Part shown: positions 2,641-64,000 of the stretch, piece after piece
Layout: each line of letters starts with the position of its first letter
Numbering within the stretch: the first letter of the stretch is position 1
Virus record (IMG/VR): IMGVR_UViG_3300037797_000117
Location: 102,388 to 166,387 of that record
Length of the DNA stretch: 64,000 nucleotides
Strand: one strand, 5' to 3'
Origin: a virus
Translations under genes and position numbers: made by a program
The notes under the pieces: model-generated
What the model saw: the letters and a program-made list of their open reading frames with translations, nothing else
Database searches by the model: none
Told to the model about the DNA's origin: nothing

Positions 2641-2703
2641 CCCCCAGCACACCGCGGCCCGCCACCCCTGACCAGGGGTGGCGGGCCGCGCACGTATCTG
2701 ATC

Positions 2704-3611: not shown

Positions 3612-3710
3612 GCCGTGAGGGGCGGCGGTCCCGTGATCAACGGGTCACCAACCGGTCAGGTCACGACCCGACGGGGAGAAAGGGACGAACAGCCCGCTAC
3701 GCTCACCCCC

Positions 3711-4136
3711 ATGGCAGGGGATTTCGACCACTTCCGGACCCGGCTGACGATCGAACGGCAGCTCCGCGGATGGTCCCAAGCCCACCTCGCTACCCAACTC
3801 GGCGTCAACCCGTCCGCGGTGTCCCAATGGGAACTCGGCCACCGCCGCCCCACCGCCGCCAACGCCCACCGCTGGGCCGCCACCCTCAATGTCCCCTTGC
3901 CGGACGCCACCGACGGCTGGTTCAGCCGCCTGGACCGGATGAAACAGCCCGTCCACGGCACCCGCAACGGCTACCAGTGGCACCAACGCAACAACGACCT
4001 CCCGGCGTGCGGGCCGTGCCGGGACGCCGGCGCCCGCTACACCGCCGGCCGTAAAGCGGCCCGCCTCCAACGCGAAGCGGCCGAACCCCCTCAGATACAG
4101 GGCTCGGCCGCTTCACACCGGGGTGGGGCCAGCTAG
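3711..4136 (+). CDS. XRE-family HTH regulator with C-terminal HGTxxGY...CxxC phage domain
   Basis: RQLRGWSQAHLATQLGVNPSAVSQWELG; HGTRNGYQWH...CGPC; TACGCT -10 box 7 nt before ATG (leaderless). Confidence 0.8.
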   Translation: MAGDFDHFRTRLTIERQLRGWSQAHLATQLGVNPSAVSQWELGHRRPTAANAHRWAATLNVPLPDATDGWFSRLDRMKQPVHGTRNGYQWHQRNNDLPACGPCRDAGARYTAGRKAARLQREAAEPPQIQGSAASHRGGAS

Positions 4137-16879: not shown

Positions 16880-17008
16880 ATGTGGTTGCTGGACATGCTG
16901 TTCGGCAGCTCCGACGACTCGACCGACGAGGTTTACGGCGGCGACGACGGCTACGACGGCGCCGACTGGGAAGACGACTTCGACGGCTACGACGAAGACG
17001 AGTTCTGA
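16880..17008 (+). CDS. 42-aa very acidic protein
   Basis: GAAAGGA RBS; MWLLDMLFGSSDDSTDEVYGGDDGYDGADWEDDFDGYDEDEF. Confidence 0.65.
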   Translation: MWLLDMLFGSSDDSTDEVYGGDDGYDGADWEDDFDGYDEDEF

Positions 17009-17018
17009 GGCGATCGCC

Positions 17019-17201
17019 GTGGCCTACCTGGTGTACGACGCCATCAACGCGGTCTTCGAGGTGTGCTGCGCCGACGACGGCTGCAACGGAGGAGTGGTCG
17101 GCACGTTCGACTACGAGGACGACGCCGACGAGTACGCCGAAGACCACGAATACGAGCACGACGTCGCCGCGTACGCCGACTACAACGGGGAGGTGTTCTG
17201 A
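17019..17201 (+). CDS. 60-aa acidic Cys/His protein
   Basis: GAGG RBS; paralogous to next ORF (DGCN...GxFDxExDA). Confidence 0.65.
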   Translation: MAYLVYDAINAVFEVCCADDGCNGGVVGTFDYEDDADEYAEDHEYEHDVAAYADYNGEVF

Positions 17202-17205
17202 CCGG

Positions 17206-17361
17206 GTGGCCGACTACCACTACGACGAGCTGTCCGACGCCTACGACGTCTACTGCGAAGACGGCTGCAACCCGAACAACGACGGCTACCTCGGCAGCTT
17301 CGACGACGAACGCGACGCCATCCTCACCGCCGACAACGACGAGACGTACCACTACGGCTAG
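17206..17361 (+). CDS. 51-aa acidic Cys/His protein
   Basis: GGAGG RBS; paralogous to previous ORF. Confidence 0.65.
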   Translation: MADYHYDELSDAYDVYCEDGCNPNNDGYLGSFDDERDAILTADNDETYHYG

Positions 17362-48137: not shown

Positions 48138-48204
48138 GGGTGTGCCGCCCTTTCGGGTGGGGTGGAGCCGTTGGGGAAACGGGGTGCTGCGGGTGGTGCA
48201 GGGG

Positions 48205-48402
48205 TCAGGCGTTCTCGTGGGGGATGCCGAGCAGGTCCAACGCTTCCTCGATCAGGGCGGCCGGGCCGTCACCTTCGTAGACGGCACCTCCGCCGGTGTC
48301 GTACACGGCGACGTAGTCGTTGTCGAGCACGAGCGAGTTGGCGCGCGACAACTCCCCGCTGTCGTAGGCGGCCTTCAAATCGGCCAACGTTGCGTACTTC
48401 AT
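48205..48402 (-). CDS. hypothetical protein
   Basis: ATGA overlap. Confidence 0.6.
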   Translation of the reverse strand: MKYATLADLKAAYDSGELSRANSLVLDNDYVAVYDTGGGAVYEGDGPAALIEEALDLLGIPHENA

Positions 48403-48785
48403 GCCGGTTCACCTTCCGTGTCGGGGTTGCTGCGCTGGTCGCCTCCGCGGCCGGGGCGGTTCTCTGCGTCGTTCCACCAGTCGCGGAACGCCTGCTCCAG
48501 GTGGGCGACGGACTGGCCCTCGTCGGGCCAATACTGGCGTTCCTGCTGGCCCGGCCGGACCGACGTACCGGGGAATGGGTGGTCTTCGTACCGGTTGGCG
48601 CGGTAGGTGCCGTCCGGGTTGGTGTTCTTCCCCTCGGGGAGGGGCTGGGTGAACCAGTAGTAGGCGTACAGGGTTCGCATCGAGATCGGCGGGGCGTGGG
48701 GGTCCTTGCGGCGGCGTTCCTCGGTCCAGAGCCGAACAATGTCGGTCGAGGTCAGGTACGGCAGCCGCCGATGGTTGCCGTTCAC
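48399..48785 (-). CDS. AlpA/excisionase-like DNA-binding protein
   Basis: YLTSTDI..ISMRTLYAY..FP..RPGRGG; GGAG RBS. Confidence 0.55.
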   Translation of the reverse strand: MNGNHRRLPYLTSTDIVRLWTEERRRKDPHAPPISMRTLYAYYWFTQPLPEGKNTNPDGTYRANRYEDHPFPGTSVRPGQQERQYWPDEGQSVAHLEQAFRDWWNDAENRPGRGGDQRSNPDTEGEPA

Positions 48786-48817
48786 AGGGGTTCATCTCCT
48801 CACGGGGTCGGGTGGGG

Positions 48818-49186
48818 CTATTTCCAGGGGGACTTGCCGGTGGGGCGGGTCAACGGGTTCACCTTCGCCGCGTAGGACGTTTGCGGCCGGGTGGCCCGGG
48901 CCGGACGGGTGTTGCGGGTGCCGATGCGGGCACGGGTCGCCATCGCCATGATCCCGGCGGCCGGAACAGCGACCAGGAGCAGCGGCGCCGCCATCATGGC
49001 CCCGGCGGCGGCCACCGCGAACACGACCAGCCCGGCCAGCGAACACGCCACGATCGTCACAACCAGGCCGGGGCTCACCCCCACCCGGGAAGGGCGGGGG
49101 GAACGGGCCGGCGGAGCGGCGGGCGGCCACGCCGCGTACGGCTCCGGCTGGTTCGACGGGCCGTACGCGTTGCGGGGTGGCCTCAC
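48818..49186 (-). CDS. membrane protein
   Basis: Two hydrophobic segments; GTGA overlap. Confidence 0.55.
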   Translation of the reverse strand: MRPPRNAYGPSNQPEPYAAWPPAAPPARSPRPSRVGVSPGLVVTIVACSLAGLVVFAVAAAGAMMAAPLLLVAVPAAGIMAMATRARIGTRNTRPARATRPQTSYAAKVNPLTRPTGKSPWK

Positions 49187-50166
49187 GCCGTCGCCTGGTC
49201 AGCCCAGCCAGATACGAACGGCTCAGCAGACGGCGCGGCGGGCTCGGCTGCCTTGGCGGCGCGGCGTTCGTGAATCTCTTCGATCCGGTGCATCGGCACC
49301 AGGTCGTCCCAACCCGGGTCAACCACAACCTTGACGGTCTTCCGGTTGACCCTGACGACCTCGTACCAGCCGCTTTTCGTGCGGATGTGCGTTGCGAACG
49401 GCAGCCGGGTCAGGTCCAGCGGCGGCACGGCCCGCACCGGCCGGCGCAGCGCGTCCAGCTCCCGCGCCAGCCGGTCGATGAGCCGGCTAAGCTCCCCCGC
49501 ACGCTTCAACTGTCCGTCGATGCGGCGGCCGAACTGCTTTGTGCGGCTTGACCCGCCGACAGTCCGGTTGGACTCGGCGTGGAACCGTGTCCGGGCGGCG
49601 GTCAACTCGGCTGCCTTGGCCGCGATTGCCCGCGCCCGGTCGTCGCCGTGCTCGGGGAGGATCCGCCACGCGATGCCCTCGCCGGCCTCGTTCGCCGCCC
49701 GATACTGGTCGACGTCGGCCGGGTCCAGGCCCACAGCGACCGTGCGCCACATCTTGCCGCCGTCGGTACTCGCCTGGTGCTCGAACGTCTCGCCGGGCGT
49801 CACCGGCGTCGCCGCGTTCGGCGCGGCGGTCGGGGCCGGGTCGGGGGTGGCCGGGGCCGAAGCGTCGCCGGTGGTTTCCTCGGCCGTCTCGGCGGGCGTG
49901 GTCTTCGGCTCGGGGGCAAGGTAGTGCGTCTGCGCGCCGAAGCACGAGCGGACGGTGCCGTGGTCGGTGACGACGTCGTACCGGACCTGCCGGCCGCCGG
50001 AGACGGCGTTGAAGCCGGTCACGGTGGCGTGGACGGCGCCGGTCTTGCGGTAGGCGATGCCGGCGTAGCCGCTGGCGTCGGCGGGGTAGACGAGGATGCG
50101 GACGGGGGTACGTGCGGCGGTGCGTCGGCCGATCTCGGTGGTGGTGATTTTCCCCTTGGCAGTCAT
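49183..50166 (-). CDS. hypothetical protein ending PFVSGWADQATA
   Basis: WYEVVRVNRKTVKV segment; preceded by cassette promoter repeat. Confidence 0.75.
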   Translation of the reverse strand: MTAKGKITTTEIGRRTAARTPVRILVYPADASGYAGIAYRKTGAVHATVTGFNAVSGGRQVRYDVVTDHGTVRSCFGAQTHYLAPEPKTTPAETAEETTGDASAPATPDPAPTAAPNAATPVTPGETFEHQASTDGGKMWRTVAVGLDPADVDQYRAANEAGEGIAWRILPEHGDDRARAIAAKAAELTAARTRFHAESNRTVGGSSRTKQFGRRIDGQLKRAGELSRLIDRLARELDALRRPVRAVPPLDLTRLPFATHIRTKSGWYEVVRVNRKTVKVVVDPGWDDLVPMHRIEEIHERRAAKAAEPAAPSAEPFVSGWADQATA

Positions 50167-50383
50167 CTCGGTCCCCTCAATGTGGCGGTCACTAACACAA
50201 CTCTATCAGACGTCGGGCCGGACACCGAATCAGCCCGGGAACAGCGTCAACTGCCGCCCTTTCTGTGGCGGCCGGCGTGCTTGTGGGTCGGGCTGGTGTT
50301 CCACCAGCGGTACAGACGGCAGAAGGCCAGCAACCTGAGGAGGCCAGCGAGAGGGTTCGGCATGGCGGGGGTCCTTTCGAGGG

Positions 50384-51316
50384 TTAGGCGGCGAACAGGT
50401 CGAGTTGCTCGTGAGCGGGGGTAGCCCACGACGTGCGGACCGCGGCGAGGACCTCCTCCCGGTACGCCAGCGCATACCGGAAGCAGTTACGGCAGTCGGT
50501 CAACGTCACCCGGTCCAGGGCGGTGTGCGTGCAGCCGGGCATCCGCAACTGTTCCTTGCGCGCCGTCGCGGACCACGCCTGCGAGTCCGACGACGCGAGT
50601 AGGTGCCCGATGCGGCGGAGCCCGTTGATACTGACCCCGAACCCGTGCATACGCATCCCCAACGGCGCCAACGTGCGGAACACCCGCTCAATGTCGGCCT
50701 GCCCACCACGGCGGCACACCGACCCGATCCCGACGTGCATCCCGGCCAGGTCCACACCCGCCCGGGTGTACGCGTCGAAGTGCCGCAGGTAGTCGTCCGG
50801 GTGCCAGCCCTGCAACACGGGCAGCCACTGCACCATGTCGAACTCGCCGGCCAAATGCAGATACGAGTCGAGCGTCATCTCCTGGTGCTGCGCCACGGTG
50901 AACCCGGTACGGGCCAGGACACCCGGCTCACACGGCCAGTCCTGGATCGCAACGAAGTCCGGCGGGCCGACGTCGTCGATCAGCCTGACCCACATCGAAC
51001 CGTAAAGGTCCGGCTCAGCCGACCACGGGTGCTCCGCACTGTCGCGGCCCATCATGAGTGCCGCGTACGCACCCGAATCACCCGCCCACGGGCAACCCAT
51101 ACGGACCGGGAACCGGTCACCCCGGGTCCGGTACCGGGCCAGGGTCGAGCAGGCGATGAACGTCGGCACCGGGGAGCGGACCATCTTCGACGGGTGCCCG
51201 GTGCCGGTGTAGTACGTCATCCGCCGGGCCGGGTCCGGGTGGTCATCGGCCCGTGTCCACGGCGTGATGGCAAGCTCCCAATCCGGCAGCCAGTACGGCC
51301 CGTCGGGGGCGTCCAT
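50384..51316 (-). CDS. DpdA/queuine tRNA-ribosyltransferase-like transglycosylase
   Basis: DSGAY, QDWPCEP, PVLQG, GIGSVCRR, HGFGV, SSDSQAWS; ends QLDLFAA. Confidence 0.8.
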   Translation of the reverse strand: MDAPDGPYWLPDWELAITPWTRADDHPDPARRMTYYTGTGHPSKMVRSPVPTFIACSTLARYRTRGDRFPVRMGCPWAGDSGAYAALMMGRDSAEHPWSAEPDLYGSMWVRLIDDVGPPDFVAIQDWPCEPGVLARTGFTVAQHQEMTLDSYLHLAGEFDMVQWLPVLQGWHPDDYLRHFDAYTRAGVDLAGMHVGIGSVCRRGGQADIERVFRTLAPLGMRMHGFGVSINGLRRIGHLLASSDSQAWSATARKEQLRMPGCTHTALDRVTLTDCRNCFRYALAYREEVLAAVRTSWATPAHEQLDLFAA

Positions 51317-52149
51317 CACGCCGTCTTGTCCGGTGCCGTCGGATACGGGTGGGCGTCCATCCCGACCGTGGTACGGCGTCGCGCGCTCCGATCGCCGATA
51401 GTCCATACGTACCGGTGGTTCCCCCGGTGCCGAACGGCGCGAGCGTCGACAGCGGCCAGCGCACGGCGCAGCCACACCGCCGGGGCCTCCCCCGCCGCCG
51501 GGTCCGGGGCGCCAGCCGCGACCAGGCCGGCGCGGACGTGCCCGGCGCCGCGCTCCCCGCCGATCAGCTTCGCCCGTGCCCGGTCGGAGAACACCCGGCC
51601 GTCGGGCAGTAACGTCAGTGTGCGGGCACGTCCACGCCCCGTGTACGTGGCGTTCAGCGCCTTGTACACGGTTCCGACGTGGCCGGGCATGACCAGCTCC
51701 CCGCCGACCGTGCGAGGCATCGGATCGGAGAACGCGACCACGCCACGCACGCCCGCGTCGGCCGCGTACGCGAACACCCGAGCGACGAACCACGATTCGG
51801 CGTTCGCCGGCACCTGGTCGAGCAGTACCAGCCGCGACAACTCCAGCGACTGCCGGTAAGGCTCCAGCGCCGGAAACGGGCCGGTGAGAACCGTGCGAGA
51901 CATCGGCACGCCGAGGACGGCCACCCCGACCAGGCGGGCACCCTCGAACAGGCCCACCCGCAGCGACGCGGCCGGGTAGGCGCGGCTGTAGTGGTGCGCA
52001 AGCACGAACGCCCGCGCGGTGGCCTCGCCGATCGGGTGTACGGCGTAGCGGCGCGGGTTGAACCCGCCCTCACTGGTCGGGCGCCACGAGTGCATGTGCT
52101 GGTTCCACCGCTGACACCAGGTGCCGTCAAGGGTGAGTTGGCCGTTCAC
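51316..52149 (-). CDS. Mom-family adenine modification enzyme (GNAT fold)
   Basis: FVLAHHYS, LELSRLVLLD.VPANAESWF, VVAFSDP, GHVGTVYKALN..YTGR. Confidence 0.85.
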   Translation of the reverse strand: MNGQLTLDGTWCQRWNQHMHSWRPTSEGGFNPRRYAVHPIGEATARAFVLAHHYSRAYPAASLRVGLFEGARLVGVAVLGVPMSRTVLTGPFPALEPYRQSLELSRLVLLDQVPANAESWFVARVFAYAADAGVRGVVAFSDPMPRTVGGELVMPGHVGTVYKALNATYTGRGRARTLTLLPDGRVFSDRARAKLIGGERGAGHVRAGLVAAGAPDPAAGEAPAVWLRRALAAVDARAVRHRGNHRYVWTIGDRSARRRTTVGMDAHPYPTAPDKTA

Positions 52150-53189
52150 GACGCACCCCAGGTGGACACGAACAGCGGGAGCTGTCCACAGCCGGGCGTG
52201 TCGCCCGGGTCGTCGTGGTGGCGGTCCCACGGGCCGGTGTCGGCGTGGGCCGGGCAGTGCCGGTCGGTTTCCCAGTCGCGGGCGAGCACGCGCACGCCAC
52301 ACGCCGGGCATGCCGTCCAGCGGACCACGAACCCTTCCCTGCCCGGTTCGGGCTGGACCGAGGCGAGCGCCCGCCCGTTCTGGAACGTGTGCCCGATCTC
52401 GCGCTCTACCGCGATGTACTCGTCGGCGACCTCCGGTGACAGCCTGCGCGCGATCGACAGGTCCCGGCTGGAGGCGAGGACACAGAACCGGCACGACAGC
52501 CGGGACATGCCCTCGTCGTAGGCCGGGTGGTACGGCACCCCCGACGTACGGATGTCTGCCCATACCTGCGCCGTGGTCAGGCCCTGGATCGGTAGCCAGT
52601 CGAAGACGTGGCGCTTCGTGCTGGCCGACTGGCGGGCGTTGAACGAGAACGGCGCCAACTCCGCGCGGCGCTTGCTCTCCCCTGCCCGGAACCCCATCAC
52701 CTGGAGCACCCGCACCGGGCGGCCAAGCGACCGCGTGTCGCGGATGTGTTCGCACATCGCTTCGATGGCGCGGCGGCTCGGAGCCGTCTTGTGGTCGCTG
52801 GTGCAGTACCGCAGCCCGGCACCCGGCCACCCACGCACGCCGCCGTCACGCTTGCGGCGGGTGGCAACGTCGTCGAGCAGGTCCACCCCTTCCCGGCGCG
52901 GGATTGCCAGCGTGAGCCCGTTCCGGGTGGCCTGCTCGGCAGCCAGTTCGGGCACCTTGGGCCACTCGACACGCCCGCCAAGGTCCATGTGCATCGCGAC
53001 GGCCAGGTGCAGAAGCCCGGCCGTGTTCAGCGCGAGCACGGCAGCGCGCATGGCTGTCTGGGAGTCCTTGCCGGCGCTGGTCTGGACGACGACCAGGTCC
53101 CACCAGGACAGCCACCCAGCTACGTCCGGTCCGGGCGCGTCCGGCGCCGTCATGCACGGCGCCGGGTCGACGACCAGAACCCGGCTCAC
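52146..53189 (-). CDS. PAPS reductase-like (PP-loop) protein ending LFVSTWGAS
   Basis: SAGKDSQ, RYCTSDHK, GFRAGES.RR, WLPI, HPAY..GMSRLSCRFC. Confidence 0.85.
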   Translation of the reverse strand: MSRVLVVDPAPCMTAPDAPGPDVAGWLSWWDLVVVQTSAGKDSQTAMRAAVLALNTAGLLHLAVAMHMDLGGRVEWPKVPELAAEQATRNGLTLAIPRREGVDLLDDVATRRKRDGGVRGWPGAGLRYCTSDHKTAPSRRAIEAMCEHIRDTRSLGRPVRVLQVMGFRAGESKRRAELAPFSFNARQSASTKRHVFDWLPIQGLTTAQVWADIRTSGVPYHPAYDEGMSRLSCRFCVLASSRDLSIARRLSPEVADEYIAVEREIGHTFQNGRALASVQPEPGREGFVVRWTACPACGVRVLARDWETDRHCPAHADTGPWDRHHDDPGDTPGCGQLPLFVSTWGAS

Positions 53190-54340
53190 AGCGCACCGCC
53201 CCAGGACGACACGAACGGTGTGGTGTCGGGCTCGCCGGCCGGGGCCGGTGTCAGCGGGGCGGTGTGGCCCCACCAGATCGACTTGCCGGCGTCGGCGAGC
53301 TTGCGTCGCTTCTCCTCCCAGTCGAACACCAGCCGGCCGAGCATGTTCTTCCACGCCGGGCCGTGCCCGTCGCGGGGTGTCGCCGCGTGCGCGACCTCAT
53401 GGGCCAGGAGGTACTCGACCAGGTCCCGGTCGCATTGGAACACTGCCCAGTGGATGCCGATGCTGTGCGTGCCCCGCCGGTACGTGCCCCACGTGCGTGG
53501 GCTGCGCGGGGTGTGCGGGCGGACACTGATCCGCAGGCCGGGCTTGACCCCAAGCCGGTTGACCATGTCGGGGGTGTACCGGTCGATCCACGCCTGACCC
53601 TGCTCCCGGTACCACTCGATGATGGTTGCGGCGCTGACCGCGTCACGGCGGAGCGTCAGTTGGTAGCTGCGGCCTCCGGACCAGCCGGGGTGGCCCGGTT
53701 CGGCCACGATCGGGACGCCGGGATGGGCCGTGGTCAGCCGGTTGCACTGGCACGGGCAACGCCGGCCGGTGTCGCTGTCGTCGACAAGTTGCAGCTTGTG
53801 TGAGATGCCCAGCAGCTTGAACCCTTCCCCGTTGACCAACTCCTTTGCCGGGTCGGTAGCGGCCCGGTCGGTGGCGGCGCGGGCACCCTTGAGGATCGCG
53901 GCCCGGCGGGCGCCGACGAACGCGGCGAACCGGTCCGGGGTGCACGCCGGCGGGACGGTGAACACGACCAGGCCGCCGGGCTCGAACGTCGCTCCGAGCG
54001 ACTTGCGGCGCGGCCGGATCTCGATGTTCCAGGACAGCGACGCGGGCAGCTTCACCGCGTCAAGCGCGGCGGCGTACGCGGCGATCGGGTCAGCGGCGGG
54101 GGCGGGTGTGTAGGGCTTCCACCCGTGCATGTTCTCCCCCGCGTACCAGCGGGTTTCCTTCGCGTACAGGTCCGCGACGGCACCCCGGGTGCGGGCGGTC
54201 TCCGCGTCGACCTTCCGGTCGAACGCGTCCAGGACGCCACCGGCGGCGGTGCGGAGTTGCCAGCGGCGGCCGGTCCGGTTGACGGTCCATGTCGTGGGCG
54301 GGTTGGCGGCGTGCTCGGCGGGACTGCGGAACAGGGGCAC
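53186..54340 (-). CDS. YgjP-like (M48) metallopeptidase-domain protein ending PFVSSWGGAL
   Basis: RRKSLG, GEGFKLLG, WGT, EYLLAHEVAH...HG. Confidence 0.8.
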   Translation of the reverse strand: MPLFRSPAEHAANPPTTWTVNRTGRRWQLRTAAGGVLDAFDRKVDAETARTRGAVADLYAKETRWYAGENMHGWKPYTPAPAADPIAAYAAALDAVKLPASLSWNIEIRPRRKSLGATFEPGGLVVFTVPPACTPDRFAAFVGARRAAILKGARAATDRAATDPAKELVNGEGFKLLGISHKLQLVDDSDTGRRCPCQCNRLTTAHPGVPIVAEPGHPGWSGGRSYQLTLRRDAVSAATIIEWYREQGQAWIDRYTPDMVNRLGVKPGLRISVRPHTPRSPRTWGTYRRGTHSIGIHWAVFQCDRDLVEYLLAHEVAHAATPRDGHGPAWKNMLGRLVFDWEEKRRKLADAGKSIWWGHTAPLTPAPAGEPDTTPFVSSWGGAL

Positions 54341-54395
54341 GTCGGCGCTCCTCGGCGTTTGTGGCGGTCGGCGGGGTCTTGCTGCGAGGGGGGAC

Positions 54396-54596
54396 TCAGC
54401 CAACTGAGTGCGTGTCCGCGTCGTCGTTGGTGTTGGTGGCCCGGAAAAACCAGTCCTTCATTCCGTTCCATTCGTCCCGTTCCGGAAGCGGAAAGTCGTG
54501 CTTGGCTACCTTGCTGACGGCCGCCTCAGCGCTGTCCGCTTCGACACTTACCGTGGTGGTGATGCTGCGTGTGACCTCGACTTCGTACGTGGGCAT
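54396..54596 (-). CDS. small hypothetical protein
   Basis: AGGAGG RBS; YEVEVT..VSVEADSAEAA. Confidence 0.7.
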   Translation of the reverse strand: MPTYEVEVTRSITTTVSVEADSAEAAVSKVAKHDFPLPERDEWNGMKDWFFRATNTNDDADTHSVG

Positions 54597-54665
54597 GACA
54601 TCCTCCTGTGTGGCGGTGACTGACTCAATGCTATCACGGGGTTCGGGGAGGTACGGCCGAGTCGA

Positions 54666-54968
54666 TCACGACGCACCCCACCACGACACGGGCGGGGCGG
54701 CCGCACGCTCGGCGGCGCGCTCGTCACGGCGCCGCATGGCGTCCGGGGCGGGCATGTCCGTACCGGCATCGCGCAGGCCGTACCAACCGGTGGTGACGAA
54801 CCGGAAGCCGAGCTTCTTCGTGGCCGCTTCCGCTCCGGCCTGGTCCTTGCGGTTGAACAGGATTCGGCCGGTGGTGTCGTGGCCGATCCAGCGGCCCGCG
54901 TCGCGATCCACGGCGCCACGTGCGTTGTAGTCGTTGTCGGTCAGGAGGAACCGGGGATGGCTGCTCAT
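54666..54968 (-). CDS. hypothetical protein ending PPVSWWGAS
   Basis: GAAAGG RBS. Confidence 0.65.
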   Translation of the reverse strand: MSSHPRFLLTDNDYNARGAVDRDAGRWIGHDTTGRILFNRKDQAGAEAATKKLGFRFVTTGWYGLRDAGTDMPAPDAMRRRDERAAERAAAPPVSWWGAS

Positions 54969-55046
54969 GGTTGGGCGCCTTTCATCGTGGCGGTCGGTGG
55001 GGCACGGCGGCCGCCGGGAGCTTGCACACCCGGCGGCACCGATACG

Positions 55047-55709
55047 TCACCGAACGGTCAGGTTGTCGGGGTGCTCCCACCCGAAGTGGTCGACCTGCCG
55101 GCCGTCGTCGGTCAGGTACTCGACGCGGACCGTGCCGCCGTCGCCCGTGATCGGGCAGACCGTGCCGCCGATGGGCCCGTTGTGGACGACGTAGACCCGC
55201 CTACCGGCTGCGGTGCGGTACACCGTCGACCACGGCTGTCCGGCGGGTACGGCCGGCGTCACGTGTACAGCCGCCTGTGCGGCCTTGTCGACGTCGGCGA
55301 ACACGAGTAGCGCCGGGTCCTCGCCGGTTTCCGTGTCAGGCGTAGCGCCTGCGACCGGGTGGGAGCGTTCGGTGTACGTCGGGACGCTGCTTCGGCTCGC
55401 CTCGGCGGCGTATACGAGTGCGTCGGTGGCCGGGCTTTCGATCTCCTCGGTGTCTACGTCGTCGGCGTGCCACAGGCAGGACCCGGTCGCGGAGTGAACG
55501 CGCAGGATATCGGCGGCGTACTGACCGCTGACGTAGGCGGAGCGGCCGACGTGGACCCAGGCGTATGCGGCCTTGGGGAACTGCTCGCGCAGGCGCGCAA
55601 CGGCCCGGGCGAGGTTCAGCGCGGCAGCGGCCCGGTTGAGCTCGCGGCGCCGGGCGTAGATGGTGGTGAGCTGGTCCTCAATCTGTTCGGTGGTAACTCG
55701 GCTGGTCAT
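55047..55709 (-). CDS. hypothetical protein, paralogue of 55821 gene
   Basis: Shared FP.A.YAW, EIESPATDA, PDT.TG.DP.L.VF..VD. Confidence 0.75.
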   Translation of the reverse strand: MTSRVTTEQIEDQLTTIYARRRELNRAAAALNLARAVARLREQFPKAAYAWVHVGRSAYVSGQYAADILRVHSATGSCLWHADDVDTEEIESPATDALVYAAEASRSSVPTYTERSHPVAGATPDTETGEDPALLVFADVDKAAQAAVHVTPAVPAGQPWSTVYRTAAGRRVYVVHNGPIGGTVCPITGDGGTVRVEYLTDDGRQVDHFGWEHPDNLTVR

Positions 55710-55820
55710 CTCGACTCCCTACGTGTGGCGGTGACTGACTCAATGCTATCACGGGTTCGGGGAGGCACGGCGCGGCCGGGAGCTTGCGTGCCCGGCCGTC
55801 GCCGGTACGACACCGAACGG

Positions 55821-56471
55821 TCAGACGTCCGAGCCGGTAAACGTCACCCCGACCTCGGCGAACGCACGGCCAAGATCCTGGAAGGTGTCGGCGTTCCATT
55901 CGCCGCCGGGCTGGCCGTGGTCCAGGACCGCGACGATTCGGGTCAGGAGCGCGTCCCGCTGGTCTTGGGTGAGATGGGTAAGCGGGCCGGTGACCGCTAC
56001 CGCCTCGGCCGGGCCGAGTTCGTCGGCGGCGTCCCGGTCGACGGCCGAGAAGACGATCAGGAACGGGTCGGCCCCGGTGTGCGTGTCCGGCACAGCCCCC
56101 GGCGGGACGTTGTCCCACGGCTGCGTTATGGATCCACACGACGCCCCGGCCGCGTCGGCAACCGTGATCGCTTCCGCGATCGCGTCGGTTGCGGGGCTTT
56201 CAATTTCGTCGCAGGCCGTTTCGTCGGCAACGACCGTGCCGGCCTGGTCGTGCAGCCGCAGAACAGTCACACTCGGCCGGGTGTCGAAGTTCACGTCAAT
56301 CCACGCGTATTCGGCGGTGGGGAAGCCCTTACGTAGGCGGGTGACCGCATAGGCCAGGTACAGGCGGGCCGTGGACTTTGCGGCGGCGTCGAGACGCTTG
56401 TGCGCCGCATGTATCGCGCGGTCGATGGCTTCGACGGTGGGAACGGGTGTCGGGCGGTCTGTGACGGTCAT
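55821..56471 (-). CDS. hypothetical protein, paralogue of 55047 gene
   Basis: GAGAGGA RBS; shared motifs. Confidence 0.75.
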   Translation of the reverse strand: MTVTDRPTPVPTVEAIDRAIHAAHKRLDAAAKSTARLYLAYAVTRLRKGFPTAEYAWIDVNFDTRPSVTVLRLHDQAGTVVADETACDEIESPATDAIAEAITVADAAGASCGSITQPWDNVPPGAVPDTHTGADPFLIVFSAVDRDAADELGPAEAVAVTGPLTHLTQDQRDALLTRIVAVLDHGQPGGEWNADTFQDLGRAFAEVGVTFTGSDV

Positions 56472-56650
56472 GGCGGTAAGTCCTCTCACGCAGTGTGTCG
56501 GTCGTGCACGTTCTCGGGGTTGTGGCGGTTGGTGTCGCCCGGGAGGGCATGGACCCGCACAGCCGGGGAAGCTGTGCAGGCCCATGCGCCCACCGGATCA
56601 GGCGCTGGAGTTGGGGTGTAGCTCGGGATTCAGGTCGCGGATATCGGTGC

Positions 56651-57364
56651 TCATGCGTGGGCCTCCGTGGGCTTGTAGGCGCGGATCCAGCCGGCGACGA
56701 TGGCCTCAGTGTCACCCGCGTAATCGCCGTATTCGGTGGTGCCGTCGGACAGGCGTACCGCAAGCGAGCTTTCCGGGCCGCACGCGCCGTCCGCGTTGAG
56801 CGCGCTGTTCAGCGCGTCAAGGTTCTCGTCAATCTCGATCGTGTCGGTGCTGCCGTCCGCGAACGTGACCGTTGCCGTGTCGTTGTCCAGGAACCAGCCG
56901 TTTTCGTAGTCGTACGCGGAGAACACGACCGCGACCGGGGCCGGGTCGGCCGGGTCGAACTTCTGTGCCGCAATGGCCTTTCGGGCCGTGTCGGCTATGA
57001 CCTGGTCGGCGGCTACGTGCGTGGCGCGGCGAACGTGGGAGCTGACCGTGTCTAGGCCGTAGGCGTAGACCAGGCCGGCAACCGCGTCGGCCGCGTCGTC
57101 CGGGCCGTAGATCGTGCCGGCGGTGATGGTGGCGAGGTCGCGCAGCACCGGCCACGTCACCACGATCCCCTGGGCCAGTCCCGGGGCTGCTTGCCGCATC
57201 GATTCGTGGATGTCCGCCACGGCCTCGGCCTCACCGGCCAGGCCGTACTCTGCGGCCCAGGCGGCCGGGTCGATCTCGACCGTGACCGGAATGGTGATCT
57301 TCACGTGTGCTCCCTTGGGTATGCGCGTGGCGGTTGCGTCGTCGGTGGGAAGGGTGCGGGTCAT
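56651..57364 (-). CDS. acidic hypothetical protein
   Basis: GGAG RBS after promoter repeat. Confidence 0.7.
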   Translation of the reverse strand: MTRTLPTDDATATRIPKGAHVKITIPVTVEIDPAAWAAEYGLAGEAEAVADIHESMRQAAPGLAQGIVVTWPVLRDLATITAGTIYGPDDAADAVAGLVYAYGLDTVSSHVRRATHVAADQVIADTARKAIAAQKFDPADPAPVAVVFSAYDYENGWFLDNDTATVTFADGSTDTIEIDENLDALNSALNADGACGPESSLAVRLSDGTTEYGDYAGDTEAIVAGWIRAYKPTEAHA

Positions 57365-57461
57365 GGGCTGACTCCGTTCGTGTGGCGGTGACTGACTCAA
57401 TGGTATCACGGGTGGACCAGAGCGGGGGGCCCGGCATCATGCGCCGGGCGGGAACCGGCTC

Positions 57462-57707
57462 TCACCCCGATTTGCGTTCAGAACTCGTTGCTCTTGCCAG
57501 TGCTGCCCGGGCCTGCTCCTTGGTAGCGCCGGTGCGGGCAACCACGGCGCGCACGTCGGCATCCCTTTCTCGGCGTGCCACTTCCGCACGGAGCCAGGCG
57601 GCAACTCGGACCGCCGCAGCGTTGTTGCCGTCGTCGTCCTGACCCTCGTAGCAGTCGAGCCAGGTGGCGGCGAACTCTAGGTCGTCGGTGGTGACTCTGC
57701 TGGTCAT
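57462..57707 (-). CDS. small hypothetical protein
   Basis: GGGAG RBS after promoter repeat; starts MTSRVTT. Confidence 0.65.
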   Translation of the reverse strand: MTSRVTTDDLEFAATWLDCYEGQDDDGNNAAAVRVAAWLRAEVARRERDADVRAVVARTGATKEQARAALARATSSERKSG

Positions 57708-57790
57708 CTTTACTCCCGAACGTGTGGCGGTGACTGACTCGATGGTATCACGGTGGGCCGGGGATGTCCGGCCCACCGTGGCACCGGGGG

Positions 57791-59767
57791 CTACGCGTCG
57801 GCCAGGTCCCCCCACCCGGACAGGAACGGCTCCGCGTCCGGCGCCGGATCCGTGATGTCGACGCGTGACACGTGCGCCACGATCACGGGGCGGCCGTCGG
57901 TGGCGCTCTTGACCACCGTCGACCCGTTGTCAGGCTCGACCGGGGCGACCGGGTCGGCGGCCGGCTCGACGTCGGCGACCGGGGCGGCCGGGGCCGGGTC
58001 GGTCAGCGTGACGTACTCACGCAAGGTGCGCCTTACGGTGCCGTCGGAAAGGCGAACCCGGATCATGCCCGGTTCAAAAGCAACGTCACCGACCACGGTC
58101 ACGGGCTGAATGCGGAACGGCACGCGGGTAGCGCCCATACGGCCGTAGTCGCTTGAAAGCGGTTCGTTCAACACGGCGGCCGGCTCGACCACGTCGGCGA
58201 CCGGGGCGGCCGGCTCGACGTCGACCCGGGTCACGTGCGCCACGATCACGGGTTGCCCGGAGCCGGCTACCCCGATGACGGCTCCGCCGTTGCTACCCTC
58301 GGCCACCTTGCCGGCCAGCTTGCCAACCCGGGCGGTCGTGCCCGGCTTGCCGGCGGGCACGATCGGGGCGGACATGACGTACCCACCCGCAGCCGGCTCC
58401 GGCATCCCCGGGGGAATCGGGCCGTTGTGCGGCTCCAGCACAACATCGATCGGCACGTCGCGCACGGTCACCCGGGAATCGCTGCGCGGGTACAACTCGA
58501 CGTCGACCCCGCGCGCGGTACGCAACTTGACCGCGATCCGTTCGCGGGGAAACGACACGTCGCCGCCGAGGTCGCCGACCGGTTCCGGATCGGCCATGAC
58601 ACGACCGGTCATGGTGAACGTCCACCCCCGGTAGTCGACACCGTTCACGGTCGCCCACAGGCCTGCGCACAGGTCCATCGGGTACACGACCGGCCCGTCG
58701 TCGGCGGTCGGGTCGGCATCGGCGACGTCCGTCCAGTACGCCGCGACGTCGCGGAGCGCGGCCGTGTGCGCGTCGGCGTTGCTGGTGTAGCACTCCAGGC
58801 ACATCGCGACCGACGGCCCGGCGTGCCCGGTGTCGGCAGCGTCGATGGTGGACGCCTCCCACACGTTGGCGTCGTGTCGGTCGTCGTGGTCCCACACGAT
58901 GCGGGCGCATCCGTAGCAGGTGCCGGCGTAGCGGATGACACGCGGGCGTGACCCGCCTGACCGGTCGTCGTACTCCTGAACGGGCATGGTGAGCGCACCG
59001 GACGCGGTCACGTGCGGGTACCCGGGAACCGCGACCGGCACCCCGGCGGCCGGGTTGTGCAGCCACAACGGCAACCCGTCCGGGCGGGCCGGCATCGGCG
59101 TACGTACGGTCAGGACGCCCGCGCTGGTGCCCGTACCCGACTCCTTGAACGGCTGGCCGGGGAGCTTGTCAAACGTTGCACCGTTCGACTCAGCCCAGGT
59201 GCGGAAGTCGCGGTGTTTCCGGTCGCTGCGGAATTCGTACGACGGCGGCACGATCGAGACGAGTACCGCACCCGGCCGTAGCAGGTCCCACGCGCCGCGC
59301 ACGTGGCCCATCCACACCAGGTCACGTGTCGAGTCGCCAAACGGTGGGTTCATGATGACCGCGTCGAACGGCTCACCCATCGCCACCTGGTCCGCGTCGC
59401 TCATGCCGGGCGCGCGACACGATTCGATGTAGTCCGTGAACTGCTCGAACGTGCCCCGGTACACGGTTACCCGGCCCGGGTACTCCACGTCGAGGGCGTC
59501 GAGGGCGTCCGCGCGTTCCCCGTTGGGCTCGACCGCGACCACGTGCACGTCCGCGTCGTTTTCCAGGATGGCGCGCACGATCGCGCCGTCGCCGGCCGAC
59601 GGTTCCAACACCCGCGCGCCGGGCGGGAACGCACCCATGTCGCGGTGCCCGGACACCAGGTCATCCGCCAGCGCGGCGGGGGTACGGACGAATCCATCCA
59701 TGGCACGGGCGGCGGCGTCACGGTGCGTTTGCGTACGCTTGCGGATCATCTCAGCGCGCTTGCTCAT
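57791..59767 (-). CDS. N6-adenine-type DNA methyltransferase with long C-terminal extension, ending PFLSGWGDLADA
   Basis: FVRTP..LA, VLEPSAGDG, VIMNPPF, FKESGT; GAAAGG RBS. Confidence 0.85.
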   Translation of the reverse strand: MSKRAEMIRKRTQTHRDAAARAMDGFVRTPAALADDLVSGHRDMGAFPPGARVLEPSAGDGAIVRAILENDADVHVVAVEPNGERADALDALDVEYPGRVTVYRGTFEQFTDYIESCRAPGMSDADQVAMGEPFDAVIMNPPFGDSTRDLVWMGHVRGAWDLLRPGAVLVSIVPPSYEFRSDRKHRDFRTWAESNGATFDKLPGQPFKESGTGTSAGVLTVRTPMPARPDGLPLWLHNPAAGVPVAVPGYPHVTASGALTMPVQEYDDRSGGSRPRVIRYAGTCYGCARIVWDHDDRHDANVWEASTIDAADTGHAGPSVAMCLECYTSNADAHTAALRDVAAYWTDVADADPTADDGPVVYPMDLCAGLWATVNGVDYRGWTFTMTGRVMADPEPVGDLGGDVSFPRERIAVKLRTARGVDVELYPRSDSRVTVRDVPIDVVLEPHNGPIPPGMPEPAAGGYVMSAPIVPAGKPGTTARVGKLAGKVAEGSNGGAVIGVAGSGQPVIVAHVTRVDVEPAAPVADVVEPAAVLNEPLSSDYGRMGATRVPFRIQPVTVVGDVAFEPGMIRVRLSDGTVRRTLREYVTLTDPAPAAPVADVEPAADPVAPVEPDNGSTVVKSATDGRPVIVAHVSRVDITDPAPDAEPFLSGWGDLADA

Positions 59768-59894
59768 GATCGGAACCTTTCGGGTAAACGAGCGATGCGG
59801 GGTGTTTGGGGAAGGACGCGGGCGCCTGGTCCGGCGCCGCACGGCGGGCGGCCAACACGCGGGGGGTGCTGACCGGCCACCGTACGGCGCGGGG

Positions 59895-60551
59895 TCAGAC
59901 AGCGTCGGGCGGGGAAACGGCGTAGTCCGCTTGGTTGTCGCTGGCCCACTGGTGCCAGTCATCCCGGCCGGCGTCCATTGCGGCGCGGGCGGCGCGTTGC
60001 CACGCCGCGTACCGGTAGAAGTCGTCCGGCCCGTACTGGCCGTGTCCGATGTTCCGGCCGGCTTCCAGGTACGCGGCACCGCCGTGCACGCTGGCGTCGT
60101 CGTGCCAATCGGTGGACGCCTGCGCCAAGTGGTGGCGGGCGCTGGCCTCGGCCTCGGCCCAATCGGCGGCCGACTCATAGCTGTGGCTGACGTGCCCGTC
60201 CGGCCAGGCAACTTGTTGGTGCCAGGAGGGGCCCGTATCCGGGTGGTTCGTGGCAGAGAGCGCGACCACCGCGACGAATCCCCGGAACGTGAGGACGGAC
60301 GGCGCGCGGTACCCGGTCAGGAACGATTCAAGACCGTCGGTGAGCGCGGCCAGTGCGGCTTTCTCGCTGGCCGCTTCCGCGTGCCAGTACGAATCGCCGG
60401 AGGCGTCCGGGGCCAGCGTGACGACGGCGGTCCAGCCGGCGCCGCGTTGCCAGCCGCGTGATGTGTGGACGGGCAGGGGGACGCGGATCGCGGTATCTTT
60501 GTTGATCGTTTCTCGCATGACAACTCCCGGGTTTGTGGCGGTCACTGACAC
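59895..60551 (-). CDS. hypothetical protein (start uncertain)
   Basis: Follows promoter repeat; YAAWQRAARAA. Confidence 0.65.
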   Translation of the reverse strand: MSVTATNPGVVMRETINKDTAIRVPLPVHTSRGWQRGAGWTAVVTLAPDASGDSYWHAEAASEKAALAALTDGLESFLTGYRAPSVLTFRGFVAVVALSATNHPDTGPSWHQQVAWPDGHVSHSYESAADWAEAEASARHHLAQASTDWHDDASVHGGAAYLEAGRNIGHGQYGPDDFYRYAAWQRAARAAMDAGRDDWHQWASDNQADYAVSPPDAV

Positions 60552-60843
60552 GAGTGTATCAGGCGGTGGCTACCGCCGGGGCTGGACACGGCCGATGACA
60601 ACCGACTCACCGGCCCGCAGAACAACGGGACGGGCAGGCGGCGCGGTCGGTGCAGGCGGTGCGGTGCGCGCGCGGTCCGGGCGGGTGTAGTCGATGCGGG
60701 TAGCGGGCGTGCGGGCCGGGTGCGTGTAATCGATCACGGCGGATCCTCTCGAACATGGGGGAACGTACGCGCGGCGGGCCGGGTGCCCGGCCGTGCACGG
60801 CGACCGGCCGACGACGTCGGCAAGCCACCGTGCACGGCCGGTA

Positions 60844-61473
60844 TCACCAGCCGGACACGAACGCGGCGGGCGCGGCCACCTGGTCGACGGGGGCGGCGTA
60901 CGGGTCACACAAGCGCTCAACGGGGTACACCGGCTCCGACGGGTCCGCCCCGGCCAGTACCGCCGCGTACGCGGCCAGGTAGCGGGCTGCGCGGGCGTTG
61001 TCGCCCCACCGGTCGGCCGTCCGGGCGTACCGGGCGGCGCATTCCGTCTCGTCACGCTCCCGGGCCGCCCGCGCGTCCATGTCGGTGGCGACCCCGTACG
61101 CCAGCCGGTACGCGGCCAGCACGCGGGCGTGCCGTAGCCGGCCGGCGTCGTTGTCGGCGTCACCGCCGATGCCGCGCCCGGACATGTGCTGCCACGCGGT
61201 GGCCGGGGTACGGCCCGCGCTGGCGGGCGGGCCGGCAAGCTCACGGCGGACAGCGCACGTCAGCCGTTCAACGGTGTGCGGGTTACCCATGAGAATCGCG
61301 GTACCGCGCCCGCCGTGCGGGTGCGGGAACGTCCAGTGCGCGCCGAACGGGCGGTACAGGGTCAGTTGGTGGGCGACGCCGTCAACGGTGATCACCGGGT
61401 TGGCGGTGGGCCGTTCCCCCGTTTCCGGGTGCTGGCCGTTGCAGTCGATGCAGTGGCGGGTGCGGGTACTCAT
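60844..61473 (-). CDS. hypothetical protein ending AFVSGW
   Basis: GGAG RBS; CIDC. Confidence 0.7.
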   Translation of the reverse strand: MSTRTRHCIDCNGQHPETGERPTANPVITVDGVAHQLTLYRPFGAHWTFPHPHGGRGTAILMGNPHTVERLTCAVRRELAGPPASAGRTPATAWQHMSGRGIGGDADNDAGRLRHARVLAAYRLAYGVATDMDARAARERDETECAARYARTADRWGDNARAARYLAAYAAVLAGADPSEPVYPVERLCDPYAAPVDQVAAPAAFVSGW

Positions 61474-61508
61474 GACGGGGGCTCCGTTCGGTAAAGGTGT
61501 GGCCGGTT

Positions 61509-62021
61509 TCAGGCGGTGCAGTGTTGCCAGCCGCGCGTCTCGCGAGCGTCCTGGCACGTGACGCAGTCCAGAAAGTGCCGACGGGCACTGATCCGTGCCA
61601 CCTGGTCACGGTTGCGGATGATGCCGGGGCCGAGTCGTGCCGAGTCGTGCCGGCCGGTCGCTGCGTGCTCTCCCCGGATGCACCAGTCGGCGCCGGTGGC
61701 GAGGGTGGATGCGAACCCCAACCAGTCGAGGTCGCCGGTGAACGGGCATTCGGCGGTGATGGACCACCACCACGCGCCGTCGTGATCGGTGAATCGGGCG
61801 GTGCCGATGCGTTGCCCGTCGGACGGGCGGATGATCGCAAAATCGTCGGTCCCGAAGGTCAGGTACCGGATGCGGGCAACATGCAGGCGGGAACGTTGGC
61901 CGGACGGGCCGGCGTGCACGGTCAGATAGAGGTCGGCGTGTCCCTCGCCTGCGGTAACCAGGTGTCGAATCTTGGCGCCGTTGGCGCGGGGGTCATCGGT
62001 GACGGGGGCGGTGGTGGTCAT
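61509..62021 (-). CDS. hypothetical protein
   Basis: GGAG RBS after promoter repeat. Confidence 0.65.
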   Translation of the reverse strand: MTTTAPVTDDPRANGAKIRHLVTAGEGHADLYLTVHAGPSGQRSRLHVARIRYLTFGTDDFAIIRPSDGQRIGTARFTDHDGAWWWSITAECPFTGDLDWLGFASTLATGADWCIRGEHAATGRHDSARLGPGIIRNRDQVARISARRHFLDCVTCQDARETRGWQHCTA

Positions 62022-62098
62022 CGGGCTACTCCAATCGATTGTGGCGGTCACTGACACACTATCACGGGGTGCCGGGCACGACACCCCGTGATCACTAC

Positions 62099-63112
62099 CT
62101 ACGCGGCACCCCACCCGGAAACGAACGCCGGAACCTCGGCGACCGGAACGGGCGCGGGGGTCATGCTCTCCGGCACCTCGAAAACCGGCGTCGCACCCCG
62201 GTCAATACCCAACTTTTCGGCACACCGTGGCCCGATACCGGCGGCGATACTCGTCTCTTCGGTGAGGGTGCGGCCGCACCTGAAACACACCCCGTACAGC
62301 CGTCCCAACGTCGCCGCATCCTCGGCCGACAATTCATCGGCCGGGGTGAGCCGTCCGTACACGCCTGCCGCCCGCTCCCACCGGATGCACGCCGGGGTGA
62401 CCAGGTTGCCCGTCGTGTCGCGGGTGGCCTCGGTCACGACCTCGGCACGCTTGGCGTACAGGTGCCCGCTTCCGTGCACGGCGCGGACAACGCGGTAGAT
62501 GACTCCGTCCCGCCGGTACGTGCCCTCACCGACGCCGGCCGGGCGCGTGGCGCGCGGCGCGGGCGGGATCGCTTTCAATTCTTCGATCAGTGCCGACGCG
62601 GCGGTACGGGTGAGCGGGTCCGGCATCGTACGGGACGGGTCACGGCTGGCAATCAGCGACGCAACGTAGGACCGTTGCGGACCGGTCGCCGGCTCCATGT
62701 CCGGCTGGTGCTGGTCGGCCGGTAGTTCCGGGCAGGCAAGGAGCCGATCGATAAGGTCCGACGCACCCCGGAACGACATGCAGGCCACGTTCTCGCTGCC
62801 GGGAAGGCGTACCAGGCGGGTAAGGTCGCGCTCCCTCATGAGACCGCGAATCTTGCCAACTTGCGCGCGGCTGGCCTGCCGGACGATGCCGCGCCCGCTA
62901 CGGGCGCCCGGGGTGGCGTACCGGGTGCGTTGCGCGCCGACCGTTTCGCCGTTGCGGCCGTCGTCGTACTTGCGCGGGTCGATTCCTTGGCTCACGAGTG
63001 CCGCGTCAAAATCGGCAGCGACGCACGGCCCGCACATGCATTCGGCGTCGTGCCCGGCGGGGGCGGTACGGGCGGCGTAGGCAACGGATGCGGTACGGGT
63101 GGCGGTGGTCAT
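62099..63112 (-). CDS. DUF6011-domain protein ending AFVSGWGAA
   Basis: CFRCGRTLTEETSIAAGIGPRCA; repeated AT..Q...I..L / AS.LI..L modules. Confidence 0.8.
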   Translation of the reverse strand: MTTATRTASVAYAARTAPAGHDAECMCGPCVAADFDAALVSQGIDPRKYDDGRNGETVGAQRTRYATPGARSGRGIVRQASRAQVGKIRGLMRERDLTRLVRLPGSENVACMSFRGASDLIDRLLACPELPADQHQPDMEPATGPQRSYVASLIASRDPSRTMPDPLTRTAASALIEELKAIPPAPRATRPAGVGEGTYRRDGVIYRVVRAVHGSGHLYAKRAEVVTEATRDTTGNLVTPACIRWERAAGVYGRLTPADELSAEDAATLGRLYGVCFRCGRTLTEETSIAAGIGPRCAEKLGIDRGATPVFEVPESMTPAPVPVAEVPAFVSGWGAA

Positions 63113-63346
63113 GGCGGCATCTCCGATCGGTTCGTGGTGGTCACTGCCACAATAGCGCGGGGTGTCAACCCTTGACACCCCGCGCTATCGGATGGGGCTA
63201 CGCCCGGCGGACGTCGACGGGGACGGGCAGGATGCGGGCGGCCAATCGCTCCGCAACGAGGGAACGGCGGGCAAGGCTGGCGACCAGGCGGATAACGAGC
63301 GCGGTCATGGCGGGGCTCCTAACGGGACGGTTCGTACGGGGACGGT

Positions 63347-63901
63347 TCAGAATTCCGGCGAGGGAAGCGGCGGGGCGAGGGTGACGCGGGCGGCACCCGA
63401 TAGGCCGTACACGCCAGCGGTCCGACCGAGCAGGCCGTCAACGTCGACGCGCAGATTGATTCGCATGCGGTACGACGCACGGTCGCCGGACGCGTTCACC
63501 AGGGGCGGGGCGTAGGTGGTGGCGTACACGGTGGCGGGCGTCCCGTCGGCGAGGATGATCCGAACGCCGGCCGGGGACGCGGCCACCATGTCCGGGAGCG
63601 TGTCGGCGGGTACGGTGTCCAACCATCCGACGGCCGCCAACGCTTCCGCGCGGGTGCCGCGCGGGGTGCCGGTAGCGGCGCCGCGCGGGGTAGCGGTCCA
63701 CACCAGACCCCAGCCGTCACGGGTGACCGACAGATCACCGATCACGGCGTTCGGGAGTGCGCCGTCGGTGGCGTACACGGTCCACGTTGCGACGGCGCCG
63801 CGCCGCTTCCACGGGGCGGGGCGGTCGGTTGCGATGGCGGCCCACGCGGGTGCGGTGTCGGTGGTCTGGTCGGTGGGCCGGGTGAGTGTGGCGGTGGTCA
63901 T
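63347..63901 (-). CDS. hypothetical protein
   Basis: GGAG RBS after promoter repeat. Confidence 0.65.
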   Translation of the reverse strand: MTTATLTRPTDQTTDTAPAWAAIATDRPAPWKRRGAVATWTVYATDGALPNAVIGDLSVTRDGWGLVWTATPRGAATGTPRGTRAEALAAVGWLDTVPADTLPDMVAASPAGVRIILADGTPATVYATTYAPPLVNASGDRASYRMRINLRVDVDGLLGRTAGVYGLSGAARVTLAPPLPSPEF

Positions 63902-64000
63902 GGTGTCGCTCCATTCAAGGTGTGGCGGTGACTGACACAAGGGTATCGGGGTGGTTCAAGACCCCCCGAGGTGCGGCGCGCGCTTGCGGCGCCGCACCTC

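Follow-up and report, generated by a model that had tools for sequence, protein, structure and literature searches.

Seven unrelated proteins encoded by the virus record IMGVR_UViG_3300037797_000117 (IMG/VR) end in the same short motif centred on a tryptophan, here called the W-tag, and this motif belongs to a real and apparently undescribed family that marks a phage multi-protein cassette. The stretch of DNA analysed, referred to as the window, is the final 64 kb of the 166,387-bp record (69% G+C, 20-nt terminal overlap), which on the evidence of this overlap appears to be circular, with its junction at the window end. The whole genome, with 251 called genes, is that of a siphovirus (terminase, portal, scaffold, capsid and DnaB). 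It belongs to a family of large temperate phages of actinobacteria, and judging from the relatives of the phage the host is probably a member of the Micromonosporaceae. The candidate partner of the tag is a large fusion protein containing a DnaN sliding clamp.

The W-tag in the phage genome

The first-pass annotation had noticed a common ending in seven minus-strand open reading frames (ORFs) of different families. All seven copies are in frame (stops at 49183, 52146, 53186, 54666, 57791, 60844 and 62099; Table 1), and the family calls were upheld. The carriers are a PAPS-reductase-like protein, a YgjP/SprT-like protease, an N6-adenine methyltransferase (N6-MTase), a DUF6011 protein and three proteins of unknown function; PAPS_reduct, YgjP-like and DUF6011 were assigned by Pfam, and the N6-MTase by PHROG matches together with its NPPF motif. 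A whole-genome scan with the pattern [FP][VL]SxW has revealed C-terminal matches in 7 of the 251 genes and in none of the 244 others, in agreement with the initial impression that the ending was confined to this zone. The background expectation is 0.04 matches (Poisson P ~6e-14; maximum of 2 in 5000 resamplings), which places the tag far above chance at C-termini, and a single internal match is present in the genome. All seven tags lie within one leftward zone of 25 genes (P ~4e-8). When the post-hoc choice over all 3-residue spaced patterns was taken into account, six shared copies were reached in 10 of 2000 resamplings; the reality of the tag is settled by its independent conservation in relatives.

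Across 22 tails, Ser and Trp are the invariant columns and Val is nearly so, with no conserved Gln or Leu-Phe. The conserved part is located 0 to ~15 amino acids (aa) from the protein end, and the final residues are not conserved. The common form of the tag is hydrophobic-hydrophobic-S/D-x-W-small-x-hydrophobic; that it acts as a short linear docking motif on a disordered linker has a little under an even chance of being correct, and the tag is probably a capped short helix anchored by the Trp.

Selection on the peptide

Codons differ between the copies as had been described, and the proposal of selection on the peptide is borne out by the relatives, in which the tag is conserved. The D-P-W-G-P core of the nine copies in G004, a prophage of Micromonospora sp. 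NPDC049366, shows 54 synonymous and 0 non-synonymous differences, and therefore selection acts on the peptide. A signal at the DNA or RNA level, or a neutral gene-end cassette spread by conversion, would agree with the 2 of 7 copies that precede an overlapping start, with the Ser codon, which is TCN in all copies, and with the one copy that resembles a terminator. Such an explanation is very improbable and largely refuted, as the other five copies have no overlapping downstream gene, the tag is always in frame with purely synonymous core variation, terminator-like matches occur at the chance level (6 vs 6.8) and codon choice follows the genome bias. In particular, GTC is missing at the Val position because of a genome-wide codon-pair bias (GTG-TCN 80 vs GTC-TCN 21). 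Explanations by a ribosome-binding site (RBS), a terminator or codon constraint were rejected by these overlap, terminator and codon-bias tests, and neither the RBS of an overlapping gene nor a recombination site, both named at the outset as possible DNA-level causes, found support. A DNA matrix derived from the tag copies detected no strong intergenic or out-of-frame copies, except one at window position -188. The uniform TCN codon points to a probable origin of all copies from a single gene end, followed by maintenance under selection.

In four YgjP orthologues the sequence P-F-V-S-x-W is invariant and the linker variable, even with a whole domain inserted before the tag. Homologues outside this phage group are devoid of the tag: the FVSxW form is missing from all 86 DUF6011 homologues, the majority of which have the zinc ribbon as their C-terminus, and in two an Ala/Pro linker leads to a terminal YASPW.

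Tags in related phages

In relatives, 14 copies of the tag were counted in 6 elements, on orthologues as well as on further proteins of the cassette. FVSxW copies were found in L014 (three), L015 (two), L017 (one), L018 (two) and L319 (three), and on the short contigs L106 (two) and L108 (one). The same cassette in a sister lineage carries D-P-W tags, on five proteins of the provirus G001 (one of them degenerate) and on nine proteins of the G004 prophage, and L016 has one D-P-W tag. The FVSxW(G) form given in the first-pass annotation is correct for the lineage of this phage and too narrow for the whole, since the tag of the sister phages reads D-P-W-G-P-x-hydrophobic-R. The motif is a lineage-variable tag family: the copies of one genome agree in wording, and those of different lineages do not.

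The L014 orthologue of the 327-aa protein (gene 49183-50166) is likewise tag-ended, and the L319 homologue of the 100-aa protein (gene 54666-54968) has a C-terminal FVSAW. A QLxL[PLF] motif accompanies the tag in N6-MTase orthologues, and the 7-deazaguanine insertion enzyme DpdA has a C-terminal DPW tag in its sister-lineage orthologues. The G004 methyltransferase (MTase) is split into two adjoining ORFs, each ending in the same tag and a clamp motif (L311, G004 C20:17591-19257).

Scans of viral contigs with DNA patterns for the tag yielded chance matches plus L018, and the internal PFVSGW of some terminases is unrelated to the tag. No YgjP relative was found in the genome contigs searched. 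Paper searches on the motif, on the DDPW motif of proteins that bind single-stranded DNA (SSBs) and on phage DnaN with modification enzymes retrieved nothing relevant.

The DnaN fusion as candidate receptor

Gene 1, which heads the tagged zone, encodes N-terminal modules, a complete DnaN clamp (aa 464-844) with all three DnaN Pfam domains, further modules and a C-terminal alpha/beta domain of ~75 aa. The peptide-pocket motifs of the clamp are kept and align with those of mycobacterial clamps. In other elements this cassette likewise begins with a homologous fusion of ~1000-1480 aa, and L012 has the same gene order with the fusion at the head. The fusion was found in 10 of 10 tagged elements that could be checked (this genome, L012, L014, L015, L016, L017, L018, L319, G001 and G004, with L012 contributing the fusion end only), where it is usually the zone's first large gene. 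Of 68 other phage DnaN, 63 other MTase and 119 related-terminase loci (10-kb flanks), none has two or more tag-like endings, and nor does phage Gilgamesh, in which homologues of DpdA and of the PAPS protein are present. The prophages G003 and G005 lack the fusion, the cassette and the tags despite similar heads (capsid identity of 66.5% between G003 and this phage, and of 80% between G005 and G004). When non-structural genes were compared, the fusion, C5-MTase, N6-MTase, DpdA, Mom, PAPS-like and small regulator-like genes were those present in all three tagged genomes and missing from both untagged ones; of these, the fusion stands out as the untagged hub.

The G004 prophage encodes an ordinary DnaN (L316, G004 C22:47910-49040) alongside its long fusion (L310:2408-5416), and therefore the fusion is probably not its replicative clamp. 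A specialised role fits both this observation and the long branches present among the FVSxW-lineage clamp domains in the clamp tree. The ~75-aa C-terminal domain, common to all fusions examined, is a candidate receptor. Among 1.84 billion representatives practically all of its occurrences are at the termini of such fusions or fragments, with the exception of one 712-aa protein with no clamp match, and it was convincing in 1 of 301 genomes searched of the G004 family; the fusion had no cultured phage match in the INPHARED copy. Fold searches with two models of the domain gave generic alpha/beta matches (best Z 7.3-7.4) and no Foldseek match at E 0.001. DPW-lineage fusions have an invariant tag-like W-x-x-[FLM]-G-M segment preceding the domain (L310:5069-5413, L178:13907-14251), and this putative Trp helix was modelled with a pLDDT of ~64. 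A complex prediction for clamp domain, C-terminal domain and tag scored 0.02 and, as the controls did not fold, speaks neither for nor against the complex.

The small modules of gene 1 are shuffled among the MTase, YgjP and 630-670-aa cassette proteins of relatives. No Pfam LPD match was obtained for gene 1, and an ESM Atlas match to LPD29 at 0.79 is a lead only. A BMC Pfam match in 1 of 25 members was below the cut-off and was rejected. A tandem repeat array immediately upstream of the cassette is where the two G004 contigs meet.

Canonical clamp-like motifs were present in the last 40 aa of 5/22 tag-pattern proteins versus 14/1067 others (P 2e-5), the former from only three gene families. 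In most MTase orthologues a QLxL[PLF]-type motif follows the tag immediately; in the PAPS-like protein of this genome the tag comes immediately after QLPLF (and overlaps it), as first noticed; and in G004 DpdA it lies 8 aa after the clamp motif. The DpdA end is a canonical clamp motif in the FVSxW lineage and a W-tag in G001. This occurrence in either order implies that tag and clamp motif are two separate sites rather than one long epitope. The W-tag is not a canonical beta-clamp-binding motif, as neither the Gln at position 1 nor the terminal L-[FL] or L-x-[FL] of that motif is conserved among the 22 tails.

The first-pass annotation had proposed that the motif recruits its carriers to one partner. 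The short linear motif after a P/A/D-rich linker agrees with this proposal and the DnaN fusion supports an element-encoded clamp, so far as a candidate. By analogy with the LDFL tails of phage T4, the chance that the tag, lineage-specific in its wording, docks the cassette proteins on the DnaN fusion at a non-canonical site comes close to even. Co-evolution with an element-encoded receptor predicts such wording, uniform within a genome and divergent between lineages. Such a receptor would be encoded by the cassette, most likely as the DnaN fusion, and would bind the tag outside the canonical pocket, on the appended C-terminal domain or on the clamp surface. The host clamp loader would load the fusion on phage DNA, and the fusion would carry the methyltransferase, DpdA, the PAPS-like enzyme, the protease and others as a private tool belt, acting on newly entered or replicating phage DNA to modify and protect it. 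It is rather doubtful that the DnaN fusion has been neofunctionalised into an orthogonal clamp tool belt, which would read a lineage-specific Trp barcode, possibly derived from an SSB linker, and so gather proteins for DNA modification and counter-defence on phage DNA separately from the clients of the host clamp, with barcode and receptor co-evolving in the manner of an addressing code.

Several observations weigh against the fusion as receptor. The element L359 keeps the fusion with its C-terminal domain, an MTase 54% identical and YgjP, and the W-tag is absent in the 10 kb seen, the MTase ending in a canonical clamp motif only; the fusion can therefore be kept without tags. Tag type is not clean on the clamp tree, where L016 is DPW-tagged yet placed among FVSxW fusions, and a strict mapping of tag type on this tree was not supported. 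Co-inheritance of the whole cassette gives co-occurrence whatever the receptor, and how a phage clamp would load only on phage DNA is not obvious. Nucleic acid, rather than the tag, could be the ligand of the modelled C-terminal domain, whose alpha/beta fold is generic and which has conserved basic residues. The match of the DPW form to host-type SSB tails points to a conserved fork protein. The L359 cassette also contains an IS481-family element (L359:16555-17828).

Alternative explanations

In a background scan, most of the DPW endings at control loci proved to belong to SSB tails. The sequence DPW is present in 13/16 EPPF-ending SSB tails of the fetched loci, that of this phage included, and in the mycobacterial SSB sequences 1UE1 and 3AFP (PDB). 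In actinobacterial SSB tails a conserved DDPW is located ~20 aa before DEPPF (L006:1827-2366; L021, L028, L033, L053, L324, L335). The DPW tag may copy this SSB linker motif and have diverged since in the present phage. A mimic of the SSB sequence DDPW[GA], bound by a host or phage replisome or repair protein, with FVSxW as a drifted form and YASPW as a bridge, is unlikely without being far-fetched; the cargo would reach the fork by two handles, a clamp motif and an SSB-like motif. The D-P-W-[GA] core that sister-lineage tags share with SSB tails supports it, and it would explain the free order of tag and clamp motif as well as the loss of the tag in L359. However, the FVSxW form does not share this core, and this genome uses FVSxW tags while its own SSB keeps DDPW; C-terminal to the Trp the tags have a hydrophobic, helix-like character, in contrast to the Gly/Ala/Pro-rich SSB linkers; and wording that is uniform within each genome and divergent between genomes agrees better with a receptor encoded by the element than with a conserved one of the host. 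No tagged protein ends in the acidic D/E-x-P-F of the SSB C-terminus, and no literature on a partner of the SSB DDPW motif was found.

Loading signals of virions typically consist of a short motif after a flexible linker, the form that the W-tag has. A virion-loading signal, by which tagged proteins would be packaged and injected with the DNA, also agrees with the fact that all tagged elements represented by sufficient sequence are tailed phages and that N6-MTases and metallopeptidases are typical domains of injected polyvalent proteins (PMC5512222). This function is nevertheless improbable, and the virion-packaging machine suggested in the first-pass annotation is weakened as a partner, as tag type goes with the cassette rather than with the head genes. 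Capsid identity is 57% between G000 and G004, with different tags, and 47% between G001 and G004, both DPW, in a comparison of three genomes only; close head relatives lack the cassette, the genes are located behind housekeeping-type promoter repeats apart from the head genes, and DpdA is tagged although it acts on replicated DNA. There is also only a slight chance that the tag is a turnover or transfer signal, either a degron for a Clp-type or YgjP protease or a mark for hyphal transfer by a TraB/FtsK module. Its C-terminal position, the small final residues of several copies (such as GAA and GAS) and the FtsK/TraB-like genes of the genome would agree with this, but the position of the conserved part and the variable final residues do not, G005 has a TraB-like gene and no tags, and YgjP is itself tagged here and was not found in the tagged G001.

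Organisation of the cassette and other features

The cassette of tagged and untagged genes (Table 1) is an accessory one with DNA-modification and, probably, counter-defence functions. Four modification chemistries (C5-MTase, DpdA, Mom and PAPS-reductase-like) adjoin in the window at 46329-54340, with the N6-MTase upstream, and several of these enzymes have canonical clamp-like motifs. In the DNA repeat before the cassette genes, a promoter-like site of the extended -10 type is followed by a 16-nt leader, which is conserved, and an RBS. Its distance to the tags is not fixed, and therefore the repeat is separate from them. At the corresponding place relatives have other leaders, frequently palindromic, which suggests a lineage-specific operator, and the presence of the repeat before about ten genes suggests that the zone is one regulon.

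Table 1. Positions of the W-tags, of other cassette features and of the DnaN fusion gene (window coordinates unless indicated).
Feature	Coordinates	Strand	Description
W-tag 1, PFVSGW	49183..49221	-	End of 327-aa protein of unknown function, gene 49183-50166
W-tag 2, QLPLF then VSTW	52146..52184	-	End of PAPS-reductase-like protein, gene 52146-53189
W-tag 3, PFVSSW	53186..53218	-	End of YgjP/SprT-like HExxH metalloprotease, gene 53186-54340
W-tag 4, degenerate PPVSWW	54666..54695	-	End of 100-aa protein, gene 54666-54968
W-tag 5, PFLSGW	57791..57829	-	End of N6-adenine methyltransferase, gene 57791-59767
W-tag 6, AFVSGW-stop	60844..60864	-	End of 209-aa protein, gene 60844-61473
W-tag 7, AFVSGW	62099..62128	-	Appended after DUF6011 zinc ribbon, gene 62099-63112
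C5-cytosine methyltransferase	46329..48137	-	Untagged cassette member
Small conserved cassette protein	48399..48785	-	Possible helix-turn-helix regulator; weak MerR-like lead, score 0.87
DpdA, 7-deazaguanine insertion enzyme	50384..51316	-	Untagged here; ends in canonical QLDLF
Mom-family DNA modification protein	51316..52149	-	Pfam PF25680; untagged cassette member
DNA repeat, ~9-10 copies	50181..63968, also genome 4780-4800	-	Before cassette genes
Gene 1, 1350-aa DnaN fusion	Genome 40-4092, across junction from window end 63347..64000	-	Heads tagged zone

Elsewhere in the window, an array with 38 tRNA calls and interspersed small genes is located at 16348-37287, and three consecutive tiny ORFs, very acidic and rich in Asp, Glu and Tyr, at 16880-17361; a role as DNA mimics is possible for the latter. 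Two FtsK/TraB-like genes in the tailed phage (L005:14017-16233, L001:11349-12512) suggest conjugative spread in hyphae. The sequencing runs located were three sediment DNA data sets, as contigs only, with no RNA data set listed for them.

Significance

Docking motifs common to many unrelated proteins have rarely been mapped in phages. In this case selection on the tag is proven at the peptide level, the tag exists in lineage versions and it marks a multi-protein system with several members of unknown function. Should the receptor be the clamp fusion, a role would be provided for phage-encoded DnaN copies, the way in which Mom, DpdA and MTases could stay on phage DNA would be shown, and orthogonal tag-receptor pairs would become available for actinomycete engineering; if the receptor reads the SSB DDPW, an unstudied conserved motif of actinobacterial SSBs would be opened. 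The cultured prophage host Micromonospora sp. NPDC049366 makes the system testable.

Comparison with known systems

The T4 capsid-targeting sequence and the cargo peptides of encapsulins and microcompartments are short terminal cargo signals, and the W-tag resembles them as a short terminal peptide after a linker on diverse cargo; it differs in that it does not track head genes. Compared with the actinobacterial SSB tail, the tag lacks the acidic EPPF tip and continues as an amphipathic segment, and the FVSxW form has diverged. The beta-clamp motif QL[SD]LF is likewise a C-terminal short linear motif on DNA-acting proteins, and canonical copies occur in the same cassette, often adjoining the tag, but the tag has no Gln at position 1 and has G, T, S, A, D or R before the Trp, where Leu is required. 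The clamp motif of ImuB, QLPLWG (PMC10421592), is also WG-ended, and MuC provides a case of phage use of DnaN (PMC12867686).

Polyvalent proteins and the Dar system of P1 have in common with the cassette an N6-MTase, a metallopeptidase and numerous small modules that are shuffled and act early during infection; the text on polyvalent proteins (PMC5512222) does not mention clamp or DnaN. The difference is that separate proteins share a tag here instead of forming one polypeptide, and the proposed scheme would be a non-covalent version of a polyvalent protein. In phage T4, gp55 and gp33 bind the phage clamp gp45 through a C-terminal LDFL (PMC9690074), and the present phages similarly combine a sliding clamp of their own with one short C-terminal motif on unrelated proteins (7 copies in this genome, 9 in G004 and 5 in G001). 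Unlike the T4 tails, the W-tag is centred on a Trp and varies in wording by lineage, its binding to the clamp is putative, the clamp is a DnaN within a 1000-1480-aa fusion and the clients are modification enzymes and proteins of unknown function.

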